Counted from the first letter of the stretch, positions 1 to 10,461 are shown. The stretch: 32,000 nt of DNA from Flavobacteriaceae bacterium (GCA_965224465.1 OZ245049.1:4290001-4322000); one strand, 5' to 3'. Translations and numbers: made by a program. Notes: generated from the letters alone by a model not told the origin.

Positions 1-79
1 TAAATTTAATCATAAAGAATGGGTCAGCTTTTTAAGTACTTCAAGTTACCCTGAAGCTAATGAAATATTATCCTTTTGA
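1..79 (+). CDS. 3' end (partial) of an upstream L-family paralog (putative lipoprotein family)
   Basis: Frame 2 reads KFNHKEWVSFLSTSSYPEANEILSF with stop TGA at 77-79. It aligns with the C-terminal reading of the next copy, NKNHKEWINLIGALGYSDDMFYENK (643-720). The stop overlaps the TTG at 76 (TTTTGA). Confidence 0.45.
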   Translation, partial: KFNHKEWVSFLSTSSYPEANEILSF

Positions 80-720
80 AAACACTACTGGAAATCATTT
101 TAATGACAGTTCTGTTACAATCGTGTAACTCACAAGAGAAAAAAGGAAACAAAAACAATGGAACAATGCAGCAACCATTTGATTTAGCAAATCTTACCTT
201 AAATGAAAATATTGATGATATATTGTTAACAACTCATACATCCTTAAATGACACGTTAATAGTGAACGATTACACCTATTTAGGGAATCAAAGGGTAGCA
301 TTTTCTGAAAAGAACTTATTAGTTTTTAATGGAGCACAACTTTTTAATAAGAACGATGAAGTTAAAAGCCAAGTATTGTTTCATTATGGTAAAATAGACA
401 AAGAATTTGGAGCCATTTATAATGAGAAAGATAACATATTGGGTATGTATTAAATAAAAACAGCAACAGAAAGTAAAGCCGATTTACTTTTTAAAGTCAT
501 TAATTATAGAAAATAAAGAGTAAAAAAATATAAATTAGGTACTATTGAAACCCATCATTGGGTAAATAACAATATGTATTTTTATTATATTATGAAAAAA
601 GAAAATTCAAAAAACGTGTTTTTAAACATATTATTTGTCTTTAATAAAAACCACAAAGAATGGATTAATTTAATTGGTGCGTTAGGATATTCTGATGATA
701 TGTTTTATGAAAATAAATAA
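76..720 (+). pseudogene. L-family lipoprotein gene (L1) interrupted by two in-frame TAA codons
   Basis: N-terminus MKTLLEIILMTVLLQSC is a signal peptide with a lipobox Cys. One frame stays open from 76 to 720 except for TAA at 451-453 and 514-516. The sequence after the stops keeps family motifs (ADLLFKVINY, HHWVNNNMYFYY, NHKEW) that align to L2/L3/L4 and to the partial copy at 1-79. The start is TTG where paralogs have ATG AAA. Confidence 0.55.
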
Positions 721-898
721 AGATACCGGAAGATTTTCAGAAAACTAAATGGTTTATTTTGTTCAATATAAAATCATGAAAAAAGAAATAAATTATTCCT
801 ATCAAGATTGTCTAGTTGAACGATTAAAAATGAATTTTGATTATATTCAGAATATAATAACCAAATAAATATCCAATTAAAACATTAAAAGAAGAGTT

Positions 899-1675
899 AT
901 GAAAGAACCTTATTATATGATTGATTTTAATGCAGGAGCATGCTTATTTGAAATTAGAGTAAACGATCAACCAGTATTAAAAATGAACCTAGAAGGTCAG
1001 GCATCAACAAGAATCCCTATTAATAATGCAATTTTCAATAGTGGAAAACAAGAAGTTTCTGTTAAAATGCTTCCATTGTTAGGGCAAACAAAATTTTCAT
1101 CCAAAGCAGAGCTAAGCTACTCTATAAAGCTGTTTGATACAGTAAATGATTTTCAGTATAAGGAGCAGTATGATGGTTTTGAATCTATGAAAATTGAAAG
1201 TACAACAGCTCTAATAATAACGAATACGTTTTTTTTTAATGCGGAAATTCCATATAAGTTAAAAGATTATTGGAAAGATGGTGGGGAGATAAAAGACATT
1301 GAGGATTATGAAAAAAAAATAAGGAGAGCATATTTAGGGATAATAAACTTAATTAAAGGAGAGCAATTTGATTTGTTTTCTAAAAAGATATCTGATAGAG
1401 AATATAACATAGCTACTTCAATGTACCTTTCTTCAAATGAGTCAAATAGGAGGATTCAGGGTTTAATTAATGATTTAAATAGCGGATATGACTATCTTCT
1501 ATTTGAGGAAGAGTTTGCAATACCTGTTATTTCATCTTACGGAAAAAAAATAGCGTTGAAGAAAATAGACGGAGATCCGGCTTTAGGTTTTGGAAATAAA
1601 GAGAAAAGAGAGCAGCTTCTGTTAGATATAGAGTTTTATTTTAATAAAACAACCAATTCATTTGAAATTATATAA
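899..1675 (+). CDS. A-family protein A1 (uncharacterised, no signal peptide)
   Basis: 258-aa ORF with an ATG start. It aligns end to end with 4340-5110 and 6785-7558. Shared motifs are PYYMIDF..A.C.FEIR.ND, IPIN, E.PY.LK.W, ATSMYLS and a C-terminus ending FE(I/V)I. Confidence 0.75.
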   Translation: MKEPYYMIDFNAGACLFEIRVNDQPVLKMNLEGQASTRIPINNAIFNSGKQEVSVKMLPLLGQTKFSSKAELSYSIKLFDTVNDFQYKEQYDGFESMKIESTTALIITNTFFFNAEIPYKLKDYWKDGGEIKDIEDYEKKIRRAYLGIINLIKGEQFDLFSKKISDREYNIATSMYLSSNESNRRIQGLINDLNSGYDYLLFEEEFAIPVISSYGKKIALKKIDGDPALGFGNKEKREQLLLDIEFYFNKTTNSFEII

Positions 1676-1776
1676 AAGCTGTTCTATCCGAATGGTACTG
1701 TAAAATTAATGTTTTTCTGTTAGTTCGAGTCATTACCTTATCTACCCACAGTTAGTTTAAGTGGACATTATCATTT

Positions 1777-2880
1777 TTGCTTAACCTTACCAACGATTTA
1801 AGTGTTAAATGGCAAAATTTGGATGCTCATGAACATAAAAAACTTCAAAAAAGAGCTGGTAAAATTGGGGCTGAAAAGCGTTGGAAACAAAAGGATGCTA
1901 CTTTTGGATATAGCCTAAAAAGTGAATGGGATAAAAATAGTGCTGGTAAATTTAATAAAGAAAGAGAGTTAAAAGCAGAATATGAAACAAAGTTTAAAAA
2001 ACTTTATGAGATGTTTTCTTCTATTAGTGCCCTGTCCGAAGGTATTACTAGTAAAACAAAAGGGAAAGTACGTTCTACGCCACTAAAAGGTATTCCTGTA
2101 AGTTTTGCTATAAAACCACCTAACTTATCGCTTAGCGGTCAATGGAATTTGGAAAGAGCAAATAATAACAAATTAGGAACTAAAGGTGTTATTGAGTTTA
2201 ATGCAAAACCATTAATAGGTTTAGAAATAACTATTGATTTATTGGGCGCTATTGTTTTTGTTGCTAGCTCTATAGTTGGTGCTAGTTTAGGAGTTGTAGA
2301 ATTATATAAAGAAATTAAAGGAAAGCTTGGAGAAGGTATTGATCTTGGGAATGATAAGGTTGGTGTAAAAGCTAATCTTGACATTTTTATGGATTTAATT
2401 ATATCCAATACTATTAATGTAAAAGCGAAGATTGAATTTAACACAGCAGAATCCGCTAAAGATTCTGACTTTAAAATAGAAGCAGATAGCAAGTTAAAGG
2501 TAGAGTTAAAAGTAGGTGTTATTATAAAAGGAGAAATAGTTATATTAGTAGTTAAGGCAGAAGCTTGTTTTGAAGCTTCTGCAGCAGGAGAAGCGTCTAT
2601 AACATTTGGCCATGGTATTATCTATGATGATAAAGGGCTGTATTACAAACCTAAACTAGGATTTGATGGCTTACATGCCAAATATATTATTCAAGTAAGT
2701 GCTGGTTTAGCTATAAAAATCGCAAAAGATAAAAGTAAAATCAACATAAAACATGGGGGTAAACATACTTTTGCAGAAGGTGATTTTCCAGATGTAATCC
2801 CTTCTTTTGATGTAATTAAAGAACTAGAGGGATATTTTGGTTTTAGTGCTAATATTCCTTTAATCAGTAATAAAAAATAG
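1777..2880 (+). CDS. B-family protein B1: toxin-like, hydrophobic Gly/Ala segment plus amphipathic beta-rich C-terminal domain; possibly an orphan (start-less) cassette
   Basis: 367-codon ORF, paralogous to 5221-6043. The only candidate start is TTG at 1777, and the first in-frame ATG is at codon 79. The frame opens right after TAG at 1753-1755, and homology with B2 begins at 1759, upstream of the TTG. The stop lies 4 nt before the lipoprotein gene L2. Confidence 0.6.
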   Translation: MLNLTNDLSVKWQNLDAHEHKKLQKRAGKIGAEKRWKQKDATFGYSLKSEWDKNSAGKFNKERELKAEYETKFKKLYEMFSSISALSEGITSKTKGKVRSTPLKGIPVSFAIKPPNLSLSGQWNLERANNNKLGTKGVIEFNAKPLIGLEITIDLLGAIVFVASSIVGASLGVVELYKEIKGKLGEGIDLGNDKVGVKANLDIFMDLIISNTINVKAKIEFNTAESAKDSDFKIEADSKLKVELKVGVIIKGEIVILVVKAEACFEASAAGEASITFGHGIIYDDKGLYYKPKLGFDGLHAKYIIQVSAGLAIKIAKDKSKINIKHGGKHTFAEGDFPDVIPSFDVIKELEGYFGFSANIPLISNKK

Positions 2881-2884
2881 AAAC

Positions 2885-3559
2885 ATGAAAGTGATAACGA
2901 CCATAATGATATTAATTATATTAACTTCATGTAACTCTAAGATGAATATAGAGGAATTTGAATTTGACAGGGGAATTCCAATTCAAATCGATGGATTAAA
3001 CAAGGAGTACAGTGTATATGTACCATGGCCTAGTTTGTATAGGCTGAAAAATATAAGTAAGTTTAAATACAATACAATAAAATTTAAAAATGAAAGTATT
3101 GAGTTTAAAGATGAATTATATATCAGAAAGAACAAATTGCTCTTGATTGTAGATTCGTTTGAAATGAATAATTATATAGGATTTGAACTTTCTTTGATTA
3201 ATGAAAAAACAAGTAATGATTTTTTAAATTTGTTTAACAAAAAGTATAAAACTCCATTTAAAAAAAGTGAATATGTAAAAGACAAATATAAGCGTATAAA
3301 ATATTTGTGGATAGATACATTATCTAATAAAATGATCTATTATTATAAGCGTAATGAGTCTGGTCATAAGAATTTTAAAACTGGAGAAAAACAAACTTTA
3401 AGTGAAACTAAAATTATCATACTAAAATTAGGTTTAATAGCTGAGATCGATTCTGATGACAAAAGGAATGATCCAGAAAATTCAAGAAAAATTTTAAAAC
3501 AAAAGCCTAATGCTTTTGATTTGTTAGAAATTTTTAAAAATGAATTTCCTGAAGAGTGA
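2885..3559 (+). CDS. L-family lipoprotein L2 (candidate immunity-type partner of B1)
   Basis: MKVITTIMILIILTSCNS is a signal peptide with a lipobox. The ATG lies 4 nt after the B1 stop (TAGAAACATG). Paralogous to 3615-4300 and more distantly to L1 and L4 (motifs IGF.L.LIN....DFL.LFNKKY.TP and YLW....MIYYY). Confidence 0.75.
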   Translation: MKVITTIMILIILTSCNSKMNIEEFEFDRGIPIQIDGLNKEYSVYVPWPSLYRLKNISKFKYNTIKFKNESIEFKDELYIRKNKLLLIVDSFEMNNYIGFELSLINEKTSNDFLNLFNKKYKTPFKKSEYVKDKYKRIKYLWIDTLSNKMIYYYKRNESGHKNFKTGEKQTLSETKIIILKLGLIAEIDSDDKRNDPENSRKILKQKPNAFDLLEIFKNEFPEE

Positions 3560-3614
3560 AATTTTTCGTTTCTAGTATGAAAATTAAACCGAAACAGAAT
3601 TTAAACTATTAAAT

Positions 3615-4300
3615 ATGAAATTACTTATTCAATTAGTATCAATACTGCTAATAATTATTTCTATAACATCATGTCAAGAAAAAATTGATATTAAAAAATT
3701 AAAATTTGATACTGCCAGTAAAAACCGAAAAATTAATTAAAGATTATAACCTAACTATTCCCTTAAAAGATATTTATAATGTTAGTGATATAGGAAATTA
3801 CCATTATGGAGATATTGAGTTAAAAAAAGAAAGTATTACGTTTAAAGGGGAAAGTAATGTTTACAAGAATGAACTTAGTTTAATTGTGGACTCTTATGAG
3901 ACTAAAAAATATGTAGGTTTTTATCTAGAAATTATTAATGAGGAAATAAGTGATGAATTCTTGTTGTACTTTAACACTACTTATGGTAGTCCATTAAAAA
4001 AGTATGAAAATATTAAATGGAACTATAAAGACCAGATATATATGGAATGCTGAAAAAGGTAATCAGTTTATCTTTTATGATAAACATAATGAAGAACACA
4101 AGAACATAAAAACAGGTAAAGTGCAAGTTTTTAGCAGTACAAAAATTATAATTTTAAAGCATGGTCTTAAATTTGACGATAGAAATCCTTTTCATAGAAA
4201 AGGAGATAAAGAAAAGCTTGAAGTGTATTTTAAAGAAAACCCAGAGTATGCATATCTTTTTCATATTTTCAAAAACAAAGTTTTAGACCCTATAGATTAA
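3615..4300 (+). pseudogene. L-family lipoprotein L3, tandem duplicate of L2 broken by two frameshifts
   Basis: ATG at 3615 gives MKLLIQLVSILLIIISITSCQEKIDIKKLKFD, then a stop at 3738-3740. Homology to L2 continues in the next frame (ORF 3706-4053) and again in the third frame (ORF 4004-4300). The frame changes fall near 3708-3712 and 4025-4035. Confidence 0.7.
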
Positions 4301-4339
4301 TTATTTGAATTTAAGTTCAATAATAAAATATTAAATAAA

Positions 4340-5110
4340 ATGAAAAAAACATTTTACGAAGCTGATTGTAGTGCCTTAAATTGCTTGCTTCAAATTAGAA
4401 TAAATGATGTAGAGGTGTTTACTGCTCCTATTGATGGTCAGATGCGAACAGATATCCCTATTAATATGGGAATCCTTGAAAGCGGAGTGCAAGAAATAGA
4501 AGTTAGGGGATTGCCATTATCCAATTCAATAGCGCTAAATGAGAATGCCTATATACGTTATCAGATTAATGACTTTGACCTTAGTACAGGAAGTTATAAG
4601 TTTATAAAACAGTTTAAAAATCATCAAACTGCTCCTGTACAGAAAGGGAGTCCATTAATAGTTCATAAAAGCACATTTCTAGCAGAAGTTCCTTATAAGT
4701 TAGAGGCATGGCAAAAAGGTTTAGATTTAAAGGATGTTGAAAATATTAAAGCCAAACTGAAAATTGCCTACAATAAACTTATTACGCATTTAAAAAAGGG
4801 AGAGTTTGACAATTTACTTAATGCCTTAAAAAAGCGTGAGAAAAATGCTGCTACAGCAATGTATTTATCTGATAGCGAATCTCAAAATAGAATTTCAAAA
4901 TTGATTTTTGACTTTAAATCAGGCTTTAAGGTAATGCCATTGACATCAAACATAAGACTTGAGTATTCTGCTTATGGAAAGTTGGCTTCTTTAATAAGTG
5001 AAGATAATATGTCTGCCTTACGTCTTGAGAATGAAGACACAGAAGAAGAACTTATTTTACCAGTTACCTTTTATATTCCAGAGGGTAAAACTGAATTTGA
5101 GGTTATTTAA
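4340..5110 (+). CDS. A-family protein A2
   Basis: 256-aa ORF with an ATG start. Full-length paralog of A1 and A3, and the most divergent of the three. Confidence 0.75.
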   Translation: MKKTFYEADCSALNCLLQIRINDVEVFTAPIDGQMRTDIPINMGILESGVQEIEVRGLPLSNSIALNENAYIRYQINDFDLSTGSYKFIKQFKNHQTAPVQKGSPLIVHKSTFLAEVPYKLEAWQKGLDLKDVENIKAKLKIAYNKLITHLKKGEFDNLLNALKKREKNAATAMYLSDSESQNRISKLIFDFKSGFKVMPLTSNIRLEYSAYGKLASLISEDNMSALRLENEDTEEELILPVTFYIPEGKTEFEVI

Positions 5111-5220
5111 TGTTTTAACGAAGACGAAAAGTTGGTTTATTACATAACATATACATAGTTGTCGTTATTTTTTTAATCCTCATACCCCTACGGTAGTTGT
5201 AAAAGCATATCCTGATATTA

Positions 5221-6043
5221 AGTGGACATTATCATTTTTTCTTAACCTTACCAACGATTTAAGTGTTAAATGGAGTGACCAACCGGTATCAAAGCATAAA
5301 GAATTACAAAAAAGAGCGGGTAAAATTGGGGATGAAAAGCGTTGGGAACAAAAGTCGATATCTCATTTAATGCGAAACCGCTTATTGGTATGGAGATGAC
5401 CATAGATTTACTTTGCCTTGAGGTTGGCGCAGTTGCGGGAGCCATAACAGCTGGTGGTGGCTCTCAACCAGCAATGAGGTTGTATAAAGTCATCAAAGGT
5501 AAAATTAATACAGGCATTGAAGTTGGAAATGAGAATTTAGGCGCAAGTATAAAAGCCGATGTATTTATAGATTTGGTTATTTCTAGTACCATAAAAACAA
5601 CAATTGGTTTTGAGTTTAATACTGCAGGAAAAGCAAAAGACTCTAAATTTAGATTAGAAGCGACTAATACGCTAAAAATAGAAATAAAGGCGGGTTTATG
5701 GATTAAGGCAGAGATAGCTTTAGTTATTGTAAAACTTGATGGGTATTTTGAAATGAGCGCAAAAGGCACTGCAGCTGTTACTTTTGGTCATGGTATTAAT
5801 TATGATGACAAAGGACTCTATTATAAGCCTAAATTAGGGTTTGATGGTGTTACTGCCGAATATGTTATAAAAGGTAAGGTAGGACTATCTTCTACTAAAA
5901 AAGTACTAGGAGGCACACCAAGTAGTGATGATATGATTGTTTTAGATAGTGGATATAAAGAACTTGTAAAGCCTTTTGATGTGATTAAAAGTTTAGAGGA
6001 ACTTTTTGAATTTGATGCTAATATACCATTAATTAAAAATTAG
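5221..6043 (+). pseudogene. B-family copy B2: conserved 5' box fused out of frame to the C-terminal domain after an internal deletion
   Basis: 5221-5354 matches B1 1759-1893 and reads KWTLSFFLNLTNDLSVKW...KRAGKIGDEKRWEQK, with no start codon after the TAA at 5200-5202. That frame then terminates at about 5397. The C-terminal domain homologous to B1 residues ~134-367 lies in a different frame (ORF 5342-6043). About 292 nt of B1-equivalent sequence is missing. Confidence 0.65.
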
Positions 6044-6047
6044 AAAA

Positions 6048-6773
6048 ATGAAAATTAAATACCTAATACTAATGTTGTCTGTTACTTTAATGAATTGTAA
6101 TTCGGAAAAAAAAATTGACTTACTATCATTAACATTAAAAGAAGATTTTTTAAAATCAATTGTTGCAAAAAAAGATAGATCTAAATTTAATCTGGATAAA
6201 ATTCATCCATCAACAGGTTTGCCTCTTCTACAAACTACAAATATTAATTGGTTTAAATTCGGTAATACTGAATTGAAACATAATCCTTATGATGGCTCTA
6301 TACAATCCATAGGGTTTTATTTAGAGAAAGCATATAATACAAAAGATAGTTTGTTTACTATAGCAGGATACAGTATAACTATACCTCAAGATGATGAAGT
6401 GTTTAAGGCTTTAAAAAACAAATATGGTACTCCTAAGGAAATAAGTCCAAAGCCAGTAATAAAAGAAACATTGGCGGAAAGACGAGGGAGACTTGGATTA
6501 AAGAATGAAGGCATGCCAAAGAGAACAGCAAAAGATAGTTTACTAGATGGTTTTCATTCTTTTTTATGGAAGTTTAAAGATATTACAATAATCTATTGTG
6601 AATCGTACAATCCGCGTAAAAGGTATGTTGATTTGGACGGGAACCCTATCCAAAATAAGAAGTGGGAGCAAAAAATAACATCATCAGTTTATATTGTAAG
6701 AAATACGCCTATGGATTTAACAAATTCTGGGAAAACTGCTGCTGAAAGACTTATTCAAATATTCACACCTTAA
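6048..6773 (+). CDS. L-family lipoprotein L4 (candidate immunity-type partner of B2)
   Basis: MKIKYLILMLSVTLMNCNS is a signal peptide with a lipobox. The ATG lies 4 nt after the B2 stop (TAGAAAAATG). Distant L-family motifs are present (DLLSLTLKEDF, GYSITIP.DDEVFKALKNKYGTP, FLWKFKDITIIYC). Confidence 0.7.
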   Translation: MKIKYLILMLSVTLMNCNSEKKIDLLSLTLKEDFLKSIVAKKDRSKFNLDKIHPSTGLPLLQTTNINWFKFGNTELKHNPYDGSIQSIGFYLEKAYNTKDSLFTIAGYSITIPQDDEVFKALKNKYGTPKEISPKPVIKETLAERRGRLGLKNEGMPKRTAKDSLLDGFHSFLWKFKDITIIYCESYNPRKRYVDLDGNPIQNKKWEQKITSSVYIVRNTPMDLTNSGKTAAERLIQIFTP

Positions 6774-6784
6774 AAGTAAAATTT

Positions 6785-7558
6785 ATGAGTATTAAACCAT
6801 ATTATATGATAGATTTTAGTGCGTCGGCATGTATGTTTGAAATTCGCATTAATGACTATCCAGTTATCACGCAAAATATTGAAGGACAAGTGTCAACTTA
6901 TATCCCTATCAATTACGCAGTATTAGAAAGTGGCGAACAAGTTGTTTCTGCTACTATGCTACCATTACTTGGAGAAACTACCATACATCCAAAAGCAAAT
7001 TTAAGGTTTAAGATTATGCTTTTTGATGTTACGAACGATTTTGTGTATCAAGAGCAATTTAAAGAATATCAATCTGTAATAGATTTTAATAAAAAACTTC
7101 CAGTTCTAAAGTATGCAGTTACTTTTATTGCAGAAATACCCTATGTTCTTAAAGCCTGGCAAAACGGGCAAGACTTAAGTAAGATAAAAGAGGTTAGTGA
7201 AAAATTAGTTGTAGCCTATCAATACATTGGTCGTTTAATAAATAATAAAAGATATGATACTTTTAAAGCTATAATTGAGCGTAGGGAAAACAATATGGCA
7301 ACTTCTATGTATTTATCTACACAAGAAACACAGTCAAGAGTTCTAGGGTTAATATCAGATTTTAAGTCAGGATTTAAAGTTATGCCAATATCAAAAGGCG
7401 TTGTTGTGCAAATTTATGGAAATGGAAAAGTGGCAGCATTAAAAAAAATAAATGGAGAGTCAGCTTTATATCTCTATAACGAAGAAACTAAAGAAGAACT
7501 TATGCTAGATATTACCTTTTATATTCCAGAAGGGAAGACTGCATTTGAGGTTATTTAA
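6785..7558 (+). CDS. A-family protein A3
   Basis: 257-aa ORF, 11 nt after L4. Close paralog of A1 (PYYMIDFSASACMFEIRINDYPV) and shares its C-terminus with A2 (FYIPEGKT.FEVI). Confidence 0.75.
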   Translation: MSIKPYYMIDFSASACMFEIRINDYPVITQNIEGQVSTYIPINYAVLESGEQVVSATMLPLLGETTIHPKANLRFKIMLFDVTNDFVYQEQFKEYQSVIDFNKKLPVLKYAVTFIAEIPYVLKAWQNGQDLSKIKEVSEKLVVAYQYIGRLINNKRYDTFKAIIERRENNMATSMYLSTQETQSRVLGLISDFKSGFKVMPISKGVVVQIYGNGKVAALKKINGESALYLYNEETKEELMLDITFYIPEGKTAFEVI

Positions 7559-7613
7559 GAGAGACTAACGATACGTAGTCAAGCTAAAAGATTTAATTTT
7601 AAAAAAAAGAGAA

Positions 7614-8333
7614 ATGAATAAAAAAACAATTTTTTTACTAGCTATTTTAATCAGTTTGGGGTTAAAATTATCGGCTCAAGAACAAACAAAATATGACATT
7701 AGTACCTTGCTAGGTGGTGTAGGTTTAACTTCTATATTAAGTGACATCAATAATTACACAAAGAATGAAAAGATAGAAAATGATAAAACAATCGTTTTTT
7801 ATAATATCTATGATTCACATTTTCTGTTTTTAGGTAATCCTGTTAAAAATGTAAAAGTAATAGTGAAAGAAGATCGTGTTCGTAAAATAATGTTTATTAT
7901 TGAAGAAAAGACTATTGATGCTCCTCAATTATCTTACTCTAATTTAAGTTATTTGGGTAGTGAAGAAGGAATTGTTGAAGGAGGCATTCCTTCTGGAATG
8001 GCAAATGAAAATTCAACAGCAACGCCAATAACAAATGAAGAGATAGTTGCTCGAGAAAAAATAAGAATCCAAAAAAAAGCAACGAGAAAAAGTATATTTA
8101 TCCAAGTTATTAATCAGAACACCCCCATAACTCATAAAACAAGGATCTTCCTTGACAATAATTACACTTTTGTGTATGGGCAACCATTGTGTCAATTTGA
8201 TTGTTCCGACTTATGGGAATCGAATTACACGAAAATATTCATAGAAAAAAATAATTATTTAGATGAAACAGGAAAGGATACAAAGGTCTTTATCCGTTCG
8301 TCTCTTATAATACAATCTACATTAACAGATTAA
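7614..8333 (+). CDS. Secreted hypothetical protein (signal peptide, no lipobox Cys)
   Basis: MNKKTIFLLAILISLGLKLSAQEQ resembles an SPase I signal. 239-aa ORF with no recognisable domain. Confidence 0.55.
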   Translation: MNKKTIFLLAILISLGLKLSAQEQTKYDISTLLGGVGLTSILSDINNYTKNEKIENDKTIVFYNIYDSHFLFLGNPVKNVKVIVKEDRVRKIMFIIEEKTIDAPQLSYSNLSYLGSEEGIVEGGIPSGMANENSTATPITNEEIVAREKIRIQKKATRKSIFIQVINQNTPITHKTRIFLDNNYTFVYGQPLCQFDCSDLWESNYTKIFIEKNNYLDETGKDTKVFIRSSLIIQSTLTD

Positions 8334-8718: not shown

Positions 8719-10461
8719 TTACAAAGTAAAATCTGAGAAATAGGTAATTATGTTTTTTAGGATATTTCCATTTTTATCATCTTCAAAGTTTTTTGTATGC
8801 TCTTGGGTGTCCATATATTTTAGAGATAGTAAAATTTCGGTTTCAATTTCCGTTTCGAATTTTTTTTCTTGGATGTATTTTTGAATATTTTTTATGAGTA
8901 GATCATTGTTTGTATTATAACCTTCGAGTTGAGTATCGGAACTAATTACCCTTGCCAAATGGATGTTTTTGACCTTTTCTAATAAACCCTTTACGATGTT
9001 AGTTTGTAAATCTGTAAGTTTATATGTTTTTATCATATAAGAAATATTTGGCAGGGCTATGTTTTTATGAATGTCATCGTAGCTGTATTTTTCAAAGAAT
9101 CGTTGTTTCTGCATTTGAAAAGGTAATTCCTTTTTTAATTTTTTGATATAAGATTTGTATTCCTTAATTTTGTTGACAGCTTCTTTATTAGATTTTTTGT
9201 AAAATCTAGGTATTGATAATGTGCTTATTGTCAATAAGATAACTGTTTCGTAATCGTGAGGTCTGTCTCTATGGTATATTTTCTCTGTTATTTTGTTTAA
9301 CATTGTTAGATACAGGAAGTTACTTGCTGTTTTGTTTCTGTAGGACCCTATTTCGTCAATTTTAGTTTCGTTTTTACTTTCAAAATAGTTGGTACATTTT
9401 AGCTTTTTTGGAATGGGTGTGTATGTTATTTCTTGTTTTTCAGATTGTTTATTCGCATCTATTTTATTGTTTATGTTCAATAATGTTAAGTAGCTTTTAC
9501 TCGTTTTTTGTGCTTTTTGAATATAGATCAAGGCATTTTTGTTGTCATTTATCAAATAATATGCGGTGGCTATATTTTCTAACGTCTTTAAATAAACTAC
9601 TCTCTGACGACGTTCCTCTAAGTCTAGGTTTTCGTTATATTCTTTCCATTTATTTATGGAATTCTTAACGTTTTCAATGTCATTATTTTTTATGAATATG
9701 GCAAATTCATTGAGGATGTTATTGTATTTTTTTAATTGTAGTTCTTGTTTTTTCCATTTTTTTATATAATAAAAACGGTAATAATTTTTTTTCTTACGAG
9801 TGTTAAAAGCACTTTTTATATAGCCAACTGCATTTCTTTTTAATTTATATATTTGTACATTATTTACAGGGTCTAAATATTCTGTAGCTACAATTTTTTC
9901 CCCGTTTGCATTCACTGTAAAAATGGAACTTATGGTGGAGCTTGTTACATTTTTAATAATTAGAATACTGTTTTTGGAGGTAGTGTTTGATTTGTATTTA
10001 AAGTTAGTTACATCATCTAAAGCAGAATATTTTAGGTTGGATAGTGGTGACAATTGTATAGATCGTTTAAAAAAGTATCCTTTTCCTCTTTCAGAAATAT
10101 ATTGTGTTGCAGTAATTTGTGATATGATAAGTATTTCTTTTGTTATTTTCCCAGTCCTATCTTTCTTTTCATTGATCTGAATTTCAGGTGCGGTATAATG
10201 GAGTTCTAATTCAGAAACAAAATTGGGATAAGCACGATTTTCACTTAATAAATCATTTTTGAAATCGAATGGATAAAGACCTAGGATGTCATTTATTTGG
10301 ATCTCCCTATCATTGGAAAAATGACTCGTTGCGAAAGTTTTTGGTTCCGTAAACTGAAATAATAGTGCTGGTACGTTAGTTTCAATGGTTATGGTTTTTG
10401 ATCGTGTAGATTGTGAAAAAGCGACATTGCTCATCATAATTAGTAGTAATAATATTCTCAT
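8719..10461 (-). CDS. Large secreted hypothetical protein (580 aa, Lys/Asn/Ile-rich)
   Basis: Long ORF with an N-terminal signal peptide, MRILLLLIMMSNVAFSQS. No domain recognised. One segment (ENIATAYYLINDNKNALIYIQKAQK) looks TPR-like. Confidence 0.6.
   Translation of the reverse strand: MRILLLLIMMSNVAFSQSTRSKTITIETNVPALLFQFTEPKTFATSHFSNDREIQINDILGLYPFDFKNDLLSENRAYPNFVSELELHYTAPEIQINEKKDRTGKITKEILIISQITATQYISERGKGYFFKRSIQLSPLSNLKYSALDDVTNFKYKSNTTSKNSILIIKNVTSSTISSIFTVNANGEKIVATEYLDPVNNVQIYKLKRNAVGYIKSAFNTRKKKNYYRFYYIKKWKKQELQLKKYNNILNEFAIFIKNNDIENVKNSINKWKEYNENLDLEERRQRVVYLKTLENIATAYYLINDNKNALIYIQKAQKTSKSYLTLLNINNKIDANKQSEKQEITYTPIPKKLKCTNYFESKNETKIDEIGSYRNKTASNFLYLTMLNKITEKIYHRDRPHDYETVILLTISTLSIPRFYKKSNKEAVNKIKEYKSYIKKLKKELPFQMQKQRFFEKYSYDDIHKNIALPNISYMIKTYKLTDLQTNIVKGLLEKVKNIHLARVISSDTQLEGYNTNNDLLIKNIQKYIQEKKFETEIETEILLSLKYMDTQEHTKNFEDDKNGNILKNIITYFSDFTL

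Follow-up and report, generated by a model that had tools for sequence, protein, structure and literature searches.

Which genes make up the left end of this 32,000-nucleotide (nt) stretch of a Flavobacteriaceae bacterium genome (GCA_965224465.1, OZ245049.1:4290001-4322000; hereafter the window, with a G+C content of ~31%), and what is their likely role? A first-pass annotation, made from the sequence alone, had described the first 8.3 kb as a tandem array of three gene families (here called A, B, and L) and had proposed a polymorphic toxin/immunity array with start-less orphan copies. Comparison with related loci supports that proposal: toxin cassettes are exchanged behind a constant N terminus, and the orphans in the window start at the junction between the constant and variable parts. 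The array very probably consists of orphan cassettes from an effector family of the Bacteroidota type VI secretion system (T6SS; subtype T6SSiii) that depends on a PAAR-like protein, with B corresponding to the C-terminal domain of the effector, L to a lipoprotein, and A to a third protein of 256 to 258 amino acids (aa).

Organization of the array

Three modules, ordered L0ψ-A1 / B1-L2-L3ψ-A2 / B2ψ-L4-A3 (ψ, pseudogene), occupy window positions 76 to 7558 on the + strand. These features and the gene that follows them are listed below.

76..720, + strand: L0ψ, L0-type lipoprotein gene with lipobox LLQSC and two in-frame stop codons
899..1675, + strand: A1, intact A-family gene (258 aa, no signal peptide)
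1757..1886, + strand: B1 junction, encoding (D)IKWTLSFLLNLTNDLSVKW...KRAGKIGAEKRWK, the conserved border at which the constant part of the effector meets the variable cassette
1777..2880, + strand: B1, 5'-truncated orphan effector C-terminal (B) domain, open for 367 codons
2885..3559, + strand: L2, intact lipoprotein gene with lipobox ILTSC, 4 nt after B1
3615..4300, + strand: L3ψ, L2-type lipoprotein pseudogene with two frameshifts
4340..5110, + strand: A2, intact A-family gene (256 aa)
5148..6043, + strand: B2ψ, orphan B-domain pseudogene, with 5148 to 5340 and 5342 to 6043 in different frames
6048..6773, + strand: L4, intact lipoprotein gene with lipobox LMNC, 4 nt after B2ψ
6785..7558, + strand: A3, intact A-family gene (257 aa)
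7614..8333, + strand: gene for a secreted 239-aa protein directly after A3, outside the B, L, and A families

Several elements of the first-pass annotation were recovered. All open reading frames (ORFs) of real length within positions 1 to 8333 (i.e., 76 to 8333) are on the + strand, a lipobox gene starts exactly 4 nt past each B stop codon (TAGAAACATGAAA, 2878; TAGAAAAATGAAA, 6041), and the A proteins, which start at M..PYY, leave no room for a signal peptide. Two statements needed revision. The gene at 7614 to 8333 belongs to none of the three families to which every left-end gene had been assigned, and the supposed partial L0 gene and L1 pseudogene are a single L0-type gene, to which a complete 213-aa L0-type protein of Flavobacterium chungangense (L010, 16135 to 16776; L numbers of three digits denote the loci that we collected) aligns in one frame over window positions 94 to 690 (43% identity, E = 3e-52). 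L0ψ is the tail of a first module, the B part of which lies upstream of the window. The further claim that paralogs align end to end holds for A1, A2, and A3 (35 to 45% identity over their full length) but not for L2 and L4, for which BLASTP gave no alignment (E = 0.4). B1 and B2 are 50% identical over 236 aa (E = 1e-69), the 3' piece of B2 encoding 233 aa.

The decay of several copies was also evident. Residues 14 to 30, 31 to 141, and 137 to 219 of L2 map to three different frames in L3ψ, and B2ψ combines its frame split with the loss of ~100 codons between RWEQK and VDISFNAKPLIG. In B1, ~550 codons are missing from the start of the gene (those for the N-terminal, OmpA, and middle parts); the copy opens precisely at the LNLTNDLSVKWQN that is conserved in full-length homologs and is preceded by in-frame stops. 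Both B copies are therefore disabled, one headless and one broken, and L2, L4, A1, A2, and A3 are intact, as would be expected if L and A were kept for their protective effect.

The families had been reported as unrecognized, and they remained so: scans of A, B, L, and their neighbors against Pfam, NCBIfam, and PADLOC gave nothing above noise, and PDB sequence searches with the A profile, the B profile, and L2 gave no match. Our literature search found no paper describing the family, the three-gene cassette, or its orphans in Flavobacteriia.

Full-length relatives are encoded in T6SS loci

The full-length B homolog with a delivery domain that the first-pass annotation had called for exists in other genomes, where a DUF4280 gene directly precedes it and vgrG and hcp are close by. 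A search with a B-region profile retrieved 334 clusters (50% identity) at an E value of ≤0.001, of which 162 were at ≤1e-10. The homologs range from 414 to 940 aa. Relatives of B1 in Chryseobacterium, Flavobacterium, and Apibacter are 414 to 631 aa as called and often contain an OmpA domain, and members of 745 to 790 aa without this domain occur in Capnocytophaga, Zobellia, Porphyromonas macacae, and a Bacteroidales metagenome-assembled genome (MAG). From the N to the C terminus, the full-length effector of the recurring loci (916 to 940 aa, ~920 aa) comprises a ~235-aa domain (MAKGIKKI...), an OmpA domain, a middle part with conserved Cys and His residues, and the B domain. The OmpA domain, absent from the truncated copies in the window, matched PF00691 in the full-length relatives (E = 1.5e-15; 57.7 bits against a cutoff of 27.2) and was related by Foldseek to Pal, YfiB, and OmpA-C with a probability of 1.00; it is the only domain in the precomputed Pfam annotation of full-length homologs.

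A scan of one genome per species (GTDB representatives) returned 61 further loci, from Flavobacterium, Chryseobacterium, Pedobacter, Aquimarina, Sinomicrobium, Kaistella, Mucilaginibacter, Maribacter, Aequorivita, and a Chitinophagaceae bacterium. Genes for TssD (Hcp) and VgrG lie further upstream, followed by those for a ~300- to 390-aa adaptor-like protein, a ~160-aa DUF4280 protein, the effector, one or more lipoproteins, and a 257-aa A protein. This order was evaluated in 56 nonredundant full-length loci of Flavobacteriia and Sphingobacteriia. A DUF4280 gene directly upstream of the effector, an OmpA domain within it, an L-superfamily ORF within ~45 nt of the B stop codon, and a following A gene were each present in 56 of 56 loci; the adaptor-like gene was seen in 54/56, VgrG within 10 kb in 47/56, and TssD within 10 kb in 37/56. 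The adaptor-like gene is conserved between distant loci (E = 9e-17). DUF4280 denotes a family of PAAR-like spike-tip proteins that includes IglG of Francisella and Fjoh_3275 of F. johnsoniae (PMC5014421). Given this synteny with DUF4280, VgrG, and Hcp, the effector is therefore predicted to be a cargo of T6SSiii, and the undescribed antagonism system suggested at first gives way to a T6SSiii cargo effector.

In Pedobacter sp. R-06 (L004, 13406 to 20774), there is a second Hcp-Hcp-VgrG set 3 kb beyond A, followed by genes for a TPR protein and an Rhs/YD-shell protein; a single T6SS locus thus combines this type of effector with a classical Rhs effector. Two Chryseobacterium loci (L015, 13328 to 15031; L032, 12564 to 14112) contain a conserved trio of genes for a GIDE-like protein with two transmembrane (TM) segments, LemA, and a small TM protein; the trio follows A in one cassette type and lies between L and A in the other, with 72% nucleotide identity between its two copies. 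A betaproteobacterial MAG labeled Limnohabitans (L025, JASGCW010000001.1) also contains an effector-L-A locus of the usual Flavobacteriia type, most likely through a binning error rather than transfer.

The B domain itself offers few clues to its activity. In an AlphaFold model of a 631-aa B relative (P0005; mean predicted local distance difference test [pLDDT] score, 57), the OmpA domain is clear and the B domain, at low confidence, is built of six very long β-hairpin strands around a helical hairpin, for which Foldseek gave only weak matches to β-barrels and lipid-binding sheets. The segment LLGAIVFVASSIVGASLGVV within this hairpin is the most hydrophobic of the protein (Kyte-Doolittle mean, 2.2). 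The B domain, which is β-rich with a single glycine-rich, strongly hydrophobic helix, contains no invariant His, Cys, or Ser. Because of this composition and the weak model, we infer that B may be a nonenzymatic toxin that acts in the periplasm by damaging the membrane or binding an envelope component.

In an alignment of 20 distant effector homologs, three Cys residues and one His residue are invariant in the middle part of the effector (e.g., residues ~270 to 540 in L004, 6493 to 9312). They fall in motifs (PCK..., C....HK, and [S/T]CRY) just upstream of the junction, and a remnant, HSCRY, is found at window positions 5154 to 5170. These residues of the constant part may form a zinc site.

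B, L, and A are exchanged as one cassette

The N-terminal domain, the B domain, and A were extracted from each locus and all pairs (1,711) were compared. Between close Chryseobacterium species, the N-terminal domain is 88 to 97% identical, B 53 to 55%, and A 43 to 45%, and pairs from Pedobacter and Aequorivita follow a like pattern of constant N termini with divergent B and A. Identity in A tracks identity in B (Spearman coefficient of 0.67; partial correlation given the N-terminal domain, 0.78), and its correlation with the N-terminal domain is weak once B is accounted for (0.23). Between alleles of Chryseobacterium and Pedobacter, DNA homology spans the upstream region and continues into the effector gene for 60% of its length, ends 150 to 180 nt after the DIKW codons (at ~RWKQK), and resumes in the last 99 nt of A. 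These breakpoints delimit an exchanged unit made up of the B domain, L, and most of A. Judged from sequence, the three are swapped as one cassette, which is the logic of polymorphic toxins.

This polymorphism bears on a different explanation, in which B, L, and A form a nonantagonistic envelope complex, such as a TagL-like peptidoglycan anchor of the T6SS, that was duplicated in tandem and decayed. The OmpA-type domain does resemble the peptidoglycan anchors of T6SS membrane complexes (PMC13584744), and a report on Bte3, an effector of Bacteroides fragilis, states that deletion of bte3 abolishes Hcp secretion (PMC13402684), which implies a role in assembly as well. However, such a complex would not be expected to present allelic cassettes of 53% identity behind a 96%-identical N terminus in sister species, nor to show cassette types matched across genera, amplified lipoprotein genes, and truncated orphans (see below); moreover, the modules are not recent duplicates, as they are 35 to 50% identical to each other and 60 to 70% identical to those of other genera. 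We consider an envelope complex highly improbable and retain the interpretation of the modules as displaced toxin cassettes.

The 5' box that the first-pass annotation had noticed in both B copies (55 of 56 nt identical at 1757 and 5218) lies at this junction. From DIKW to RWKQK, B1 (1757 to 1886) and B2 (5218 to 5347) share 105 of 130 nt, in islands of 55/56 and 41/44 identical nucleotides around a 30-nt variable patch; nucleotide identity is 62% in the remainder of B and 53% in the 80 nt that precede the junction. Homology to the effector begins at 1757 for B1, ~80 nt past the A1 stop codon, and at ~5148 for B2, ~40 nt past that of A2, so both copies start within one short stretch of the effector (~residues 530 to 555 of 939). 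In 66 other loci, the 58-nt box differs from that of the window by 10 to 29 nt, and conservation of the peptide alone is thus insufficient to explain the identity within the window. The near-identical box reads as the footprint of exchange between copies inside the source genome or species. That it might be a general trait of orphans was rejected, since the orphan of F. chungangense is only ~70% identical to its main gene at the box.

Orphan B-L-A modules also lie downstream of a complete effector locus in L010, L061, and L066, an arrangement that fits the displacement model of Rhs/CdiA loci.

Two type-matched triads and a divergent lipoprotein superfamily

The best relatives of B1, L2, and A2 are found in one set of loci (L013/L014, L054, L020, and L001), and those of B2, L4, and A3 in another (L063, L049, L057, L044, and L003 of Tenacibaculum maritimum). 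The best matches of A2 (L054, L029, L012, L023, and L014) are the loci with the best B1 matches. B1 is 62 to 64% identical to a Chryseobacterium/Aequorivita type, and B2 is 66 to 71% identical to an Aequorivita/Aquimarina/Tenacibaculum type. Likewise, L2 is 41 to 46% identical to the lipoprotein encoded after the effector in L001 and L020, and L4 is 43 to 45% identical to the products of eight tandem genes behind the T. maritimum effector. B1/L2/A2 and B2/L4/A3 thus appear as type-matched triads, with L2 a candidate periplasmic immunity protein for the B1 type and L4 a candidate immunity protein for the B2 type. Recent tandem duplication of modules was rejected as their origin, given identities of 60 to 71% to other genera versus 35 to 50% to the neighbor in the array, and the modules are best read as old allelic types.

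The eight T. maritimum genes (CP137245; L003, 4624 to 9863) lie between the effector and A and encode L4-type lipoproteins that alternate between 246 and 247 aa, one gene being split; the presumed immunity gene is strikingly expanded in this locus.

L0, L2, and L4 all carry lipoboxes. L2 and L4 fell into one family only when 74 proteins from 63 loci were connected by single linkage. The L0 family, present in 26 loci, and two further lipoprotein groups joined L only at the profile level (hhalign probabilities of 96 to 99%; 97.5% for L0). A, B, and L are thus three families, with L a very divergent superfamily; a kinship between A and L was rejected, as hhalign had matched only their signal peptides.

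The A family and its possible roles

The A family is widespread and well conserved. A1 is the most divergent copy (42 to 47% identical to its best relatives among the fetched loci), and A3 has 140 homologs at 48 to 67% identity spread over three classes. The AlphaFold model of A (pLDDT, 93.4; predicted template modeling score, 0.87) consists of a β-sandwich (residues 5 to 116), four helices (137 to 194), and a small sheet, and a Foldseek search against PDB and BFVD returned no match with an E value of ≤0.001 (template modeling scores, ≤0.27).

The M..PYY start without a signal peptide is shared by 66 of 76 A-family ORFs near effectors. Exported versions, with a signal peptide or a lipoprotein signal, occur in some loci. 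In the distant locus L068, the order is tssC-vgrG-adaptor-like gene-DUF4280 gene-effector (758 aa)-317-aa protein-tssF-tssG, and the 317-aa protein has a signal peptide and aligns with 245 columns of the A profile (probability, 98%; E = 2.6e-13); no L gene lies between effector and tssF. The F. chungangense orphan ends with a 331-aa lipoprotein homolog of A (probability, 99.5%), and several other loci have extra exported A-like genes downstream. From these distributions, A appears to be an exported partner in some lineages and to have lost its signal peptide in the OmpA-bearing lineage, where L intervenes. It may be an immunity-type protein rather than the passive end of each module.

In Flavobacterium sp. 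J27 (L012, 8032 to 8943), an N-terminal lipoprotein signal (MKYFYLYIVIILISSCNKKG...) is joined to A in a single reading frame. Between B and A of this locus, tblastn found no L-type match, although ORF clustering does place an L-superfamily ORF after B. The fusion may be an intermediate between exported and nonexported A.

An immunity role for A competes with one in which the locus type is the same and A is a cytoplasmic chaperone or holder that keeps B soluble and aids its loading onto DUF4280/VgrG. L alone would then confer immunity, and the orphan A copies would be hitchhikers between L and the 3' recombination arm. The absence of a signal peptide from those 66 A proteins is in keeping with this, as are the occurrence of one A per cassette, always in last place, its covariation with B, and the resumption of homology at its 3' end. 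B also has a TM-like segment, and in other T6SS effectors such segments are shielded by chaperones (Eag/DUF1795). However, a chaperone of a dead toxin should decay, and A1 to A3 are intact despite their headless or broken B partners. Exported A versions exist, one of them (in L068) as the only gene between effector and tssF and others as extra downstream copies, which is how immunity genes behave, and a separate adaptor-like gene is already present upstream of DUF4280. We regard a pure chaperone as possible but doubtful. Intact A genes behind dead toxins favor a protective role, whereas the single copy, fixed position, and missing signal peptide favor a holder. A may be either a cytoplasmic antidote or a B-specific holder.

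Genomic surroundings of the array

The secreted protein encoded at 7614 to 8333 has a cleavable-type signal peptide, was placed outside the L superfamily by hhalign, and had no family match in the library scans. Its sole homolog among 69 loci (40% identity) is also encoded directly after A, in an Aequorivita MAG (L063, 13360 to 14001), and the gene is possibly an accessory gene of the locus. On the opposite strand, a gene at 8719 to 10461 converges on the array and encodes a 580-aa, K/N-rich protein with a signal peptide, for which only a faint match to a TPR end was obtained. The remainder of the window is housekeeping in nature (alanine dehydrogenase [AlaDh], CreD, ribonucleotide reductase, KDO8P/DAHP synthase, a Mur ligase, and TrkAH). 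A promoter/terminator scan of the window gave counts at the level of shuffled sequence, Bacteroidota promoters being outside its coverage.

No T6SS gene was found in the 24 kb to the right of the array. This, together with two undeliverable B copies beside retained L and A genes, would suit a stand-alone defensive island of L and A genes with dead toxin stumps, in a genome without a matching effector or T6SS, much like the acquired interbacterial defense arrays of gut Bacteroidales; orphan immunity arrays are known in Bacteroidales (PMC10470768). We consider such an island unlikely. The orphans of L010, L061, and L066 lie directly downstream of a full-length effector locus, the left edge of the window cuts through a module, the B part of which must precede it, and AlaDh is the right-hand neighbor of a complete effector locus in Tenacibaculum as well. 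The two AlaDh proteins are only 62% identical, and Tenacibaculum was therefore rejected as the source organism. These observations point instead to an array at the distal end of an effector locus.

A model for the locus and its weak points

The model builds on observed synteny, domain makeup, polymorphism, covariation, junction, and the pattern of decay versus retention. A ~920-aa cargo effector, encoded behind the adaptor-like and DUF4280 genes, would be mounted on VgrG and fired into neighboring Gram-negative cells. Its N-terminal domain would serve for loading and its OmpA domain would hold the toxin at the peptidoglycan, from where the B domain would damage the envelope or membrane nonenzymatically from the periplasm. 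The type-specific L lipoprotein would provide periplasmic immunity, and the type-specific A protein would be a second, cytoplasm-side antidote or a B-specific holder. Incoming B-L-A cassettes would recombine homologously at the DIKW...RWKQK junction and push the old cassette downstream; its toxin stump would decay, and its L and A would be kept against competitors still firing that toxin type. The region in the window would then be the distal end of a T6SSiii effector locus with tandem displaced cassettes.

A more specific version joins three proposals: a new protein fold for A, two layers of protection in each cassette (a fast-evolving periplasmic L and a cytoplasmic A, derived from an exported ancestor, that neutralizes B or holds it before loading), and a DIKW...RWKQK stretch that is a dedicated switch site shedding orphans. 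Taken together, these are tentative.

Several points weigh against our interpretation. Secretion, toxicity, and protection are predictions from sequence for this family, and the full-length effector and T6SS of the source genome are assumed, the upstream DNA lying outside the data. The low confidence of the B model (mean pLDDT, 57) makes a mechanism argued from its fold weak. If A confers immunity to a periplasmic toxin, its missing signal peptide is hard to explain, and A (48 to 67% identity across families) is far more conserved than most immunity proteins. Finally, given the divergence of the F. chungangense orphan, the near-identity at the junction appears to be a local event.

If the more specific version is true, these loci contain a new three-component effector module with a new A fold across Flavobacteriia and Sphingobacteriia. 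Little has been charted of the T6SS effectors in Bacteroidota from the environment and from fish disease (Flavobacterium, Chryseobacterium, Tenacibaculum, and Pedobacter), and the comparison brings out a widespread effector family outside Pfam, NCBIfam, and PADLOC, with its partner genes, a clear constant/variable junction, and evidence of evolution by cassette replacement that leaves orphans with their immunity genes. The triads B1/L2/A2 and B2/L4/A3 are concrete material for work on specificity, and the retention in every cassette of a signal-peptide-less relative of exported immunity proteins poses a sharp question.

Comparison with known systems

The first-pass annotation had likened the array to the Rhs, CdiA, and MafB types. 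As in those systems, a constant N-terminal delivery part precedes a variable C-terminal toxin to which an immunity gene is tightly coupled, the two parts meet at a conserved peptide, and start-less toxin fragments farther downstream begin at this junction and keep their immunity genes. It is not a member of those families, however. Their defining domains are absent: Pfam scans of B1, B2, and full-length homologs found no YD repeats, VENN, PxxxxDPxGL, or PAAR, as already noted from the sequence, nor any FHA repeats or MafB domain. Moreover, the variable part is one homologous domain with alleles 40 to 70% identical rather than a choice of unrelated folds, and the cassette has three genes, whereas theirs has two.

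The orphan immunity arrays and acquired interbacterial defense islands of Bacteroidales likewise keep T6SS immunity genes without a functional cognate toxin and show tandem expansions. The present array differs from them in keeping toxin stumps, in being probably contiguous with an active effector locus, and in that no recombinase or mobile-element gene was seen in this window. DUF4280 proteins such as IglG and Fjoh_3275, directly behind whose family the full-length B relatives are always encoded, are delivery partners rather than array members, and no DUF4280 gene lies within the window itself.

The closest described system is probably Bte3/Bti3/Ate3/Pte3, compared here by description rather than by sequence. 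According to its description (PMC13402684), Bte3 of B. fragilis GA3 has 768 aa, with N-terminal β-sandwiches and a C-terminal open β-barrel (412 to 768); it is toxic only in the periplasm, is neutralized by the lipoprotein Bti3 (a β-sandwich plus four helices), and requires the adaptor Ate3 and the DUF4280 protein Pte3. Structural orthologs of Bte3 are reported there in free-living Bacteroidota. Bte3 and, by prediction, the present effector are T6SSiii cargo effectors of 750 to 940 aa, encoded beside genes for DUF4280 and small adaptor-like proteins, and both end in a β-rich domain of ~360 aa without an enzymatic motif. Bte3 acts in the periplasm, and the OmpA domain implies the same compartment here. 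A lipoprotein is the immunity protein of Bte3 and a partner of the present effector, and the model of A is, like Bti3, a β-sandwich with four helices; A in the window lacks a signal peptide, and exported A proteins occur elsewhere. In addition, the B family has members of 745 to 790 aa without an OmpA domain in Porphyromonas, Capnocytophaga, and Bacteroidales MAGs, one of which is followed only by an A homolog with a signal peptide. A profile of these members aimed at Bacteroides returned only the query.

Set against the same description, the effector of Flavobacteriia and Sphingobacteriia differs from Bte3 in its inserted OmpA domain, in the additional L-superfamily lipoprotein between it and an A protein without a signal peptide, and in the position of the adaptor and PAAR-like genes (upstream here, whereas in B. 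fragilis they come after bti3). For Bte3, the available part of that report describes neither cassette switching nor orphan arrays. Kinship with Bte3/Bti3 is nevertheless probable: the gene neighborhood and the protein sizes are in line with it, as are the absence of an enzymatic motif and what is described of Bti3. It may tie Bte3, whose target is unknown, to a far larger family with a peptidoglycan-binding domain, which would hint at its site of action.

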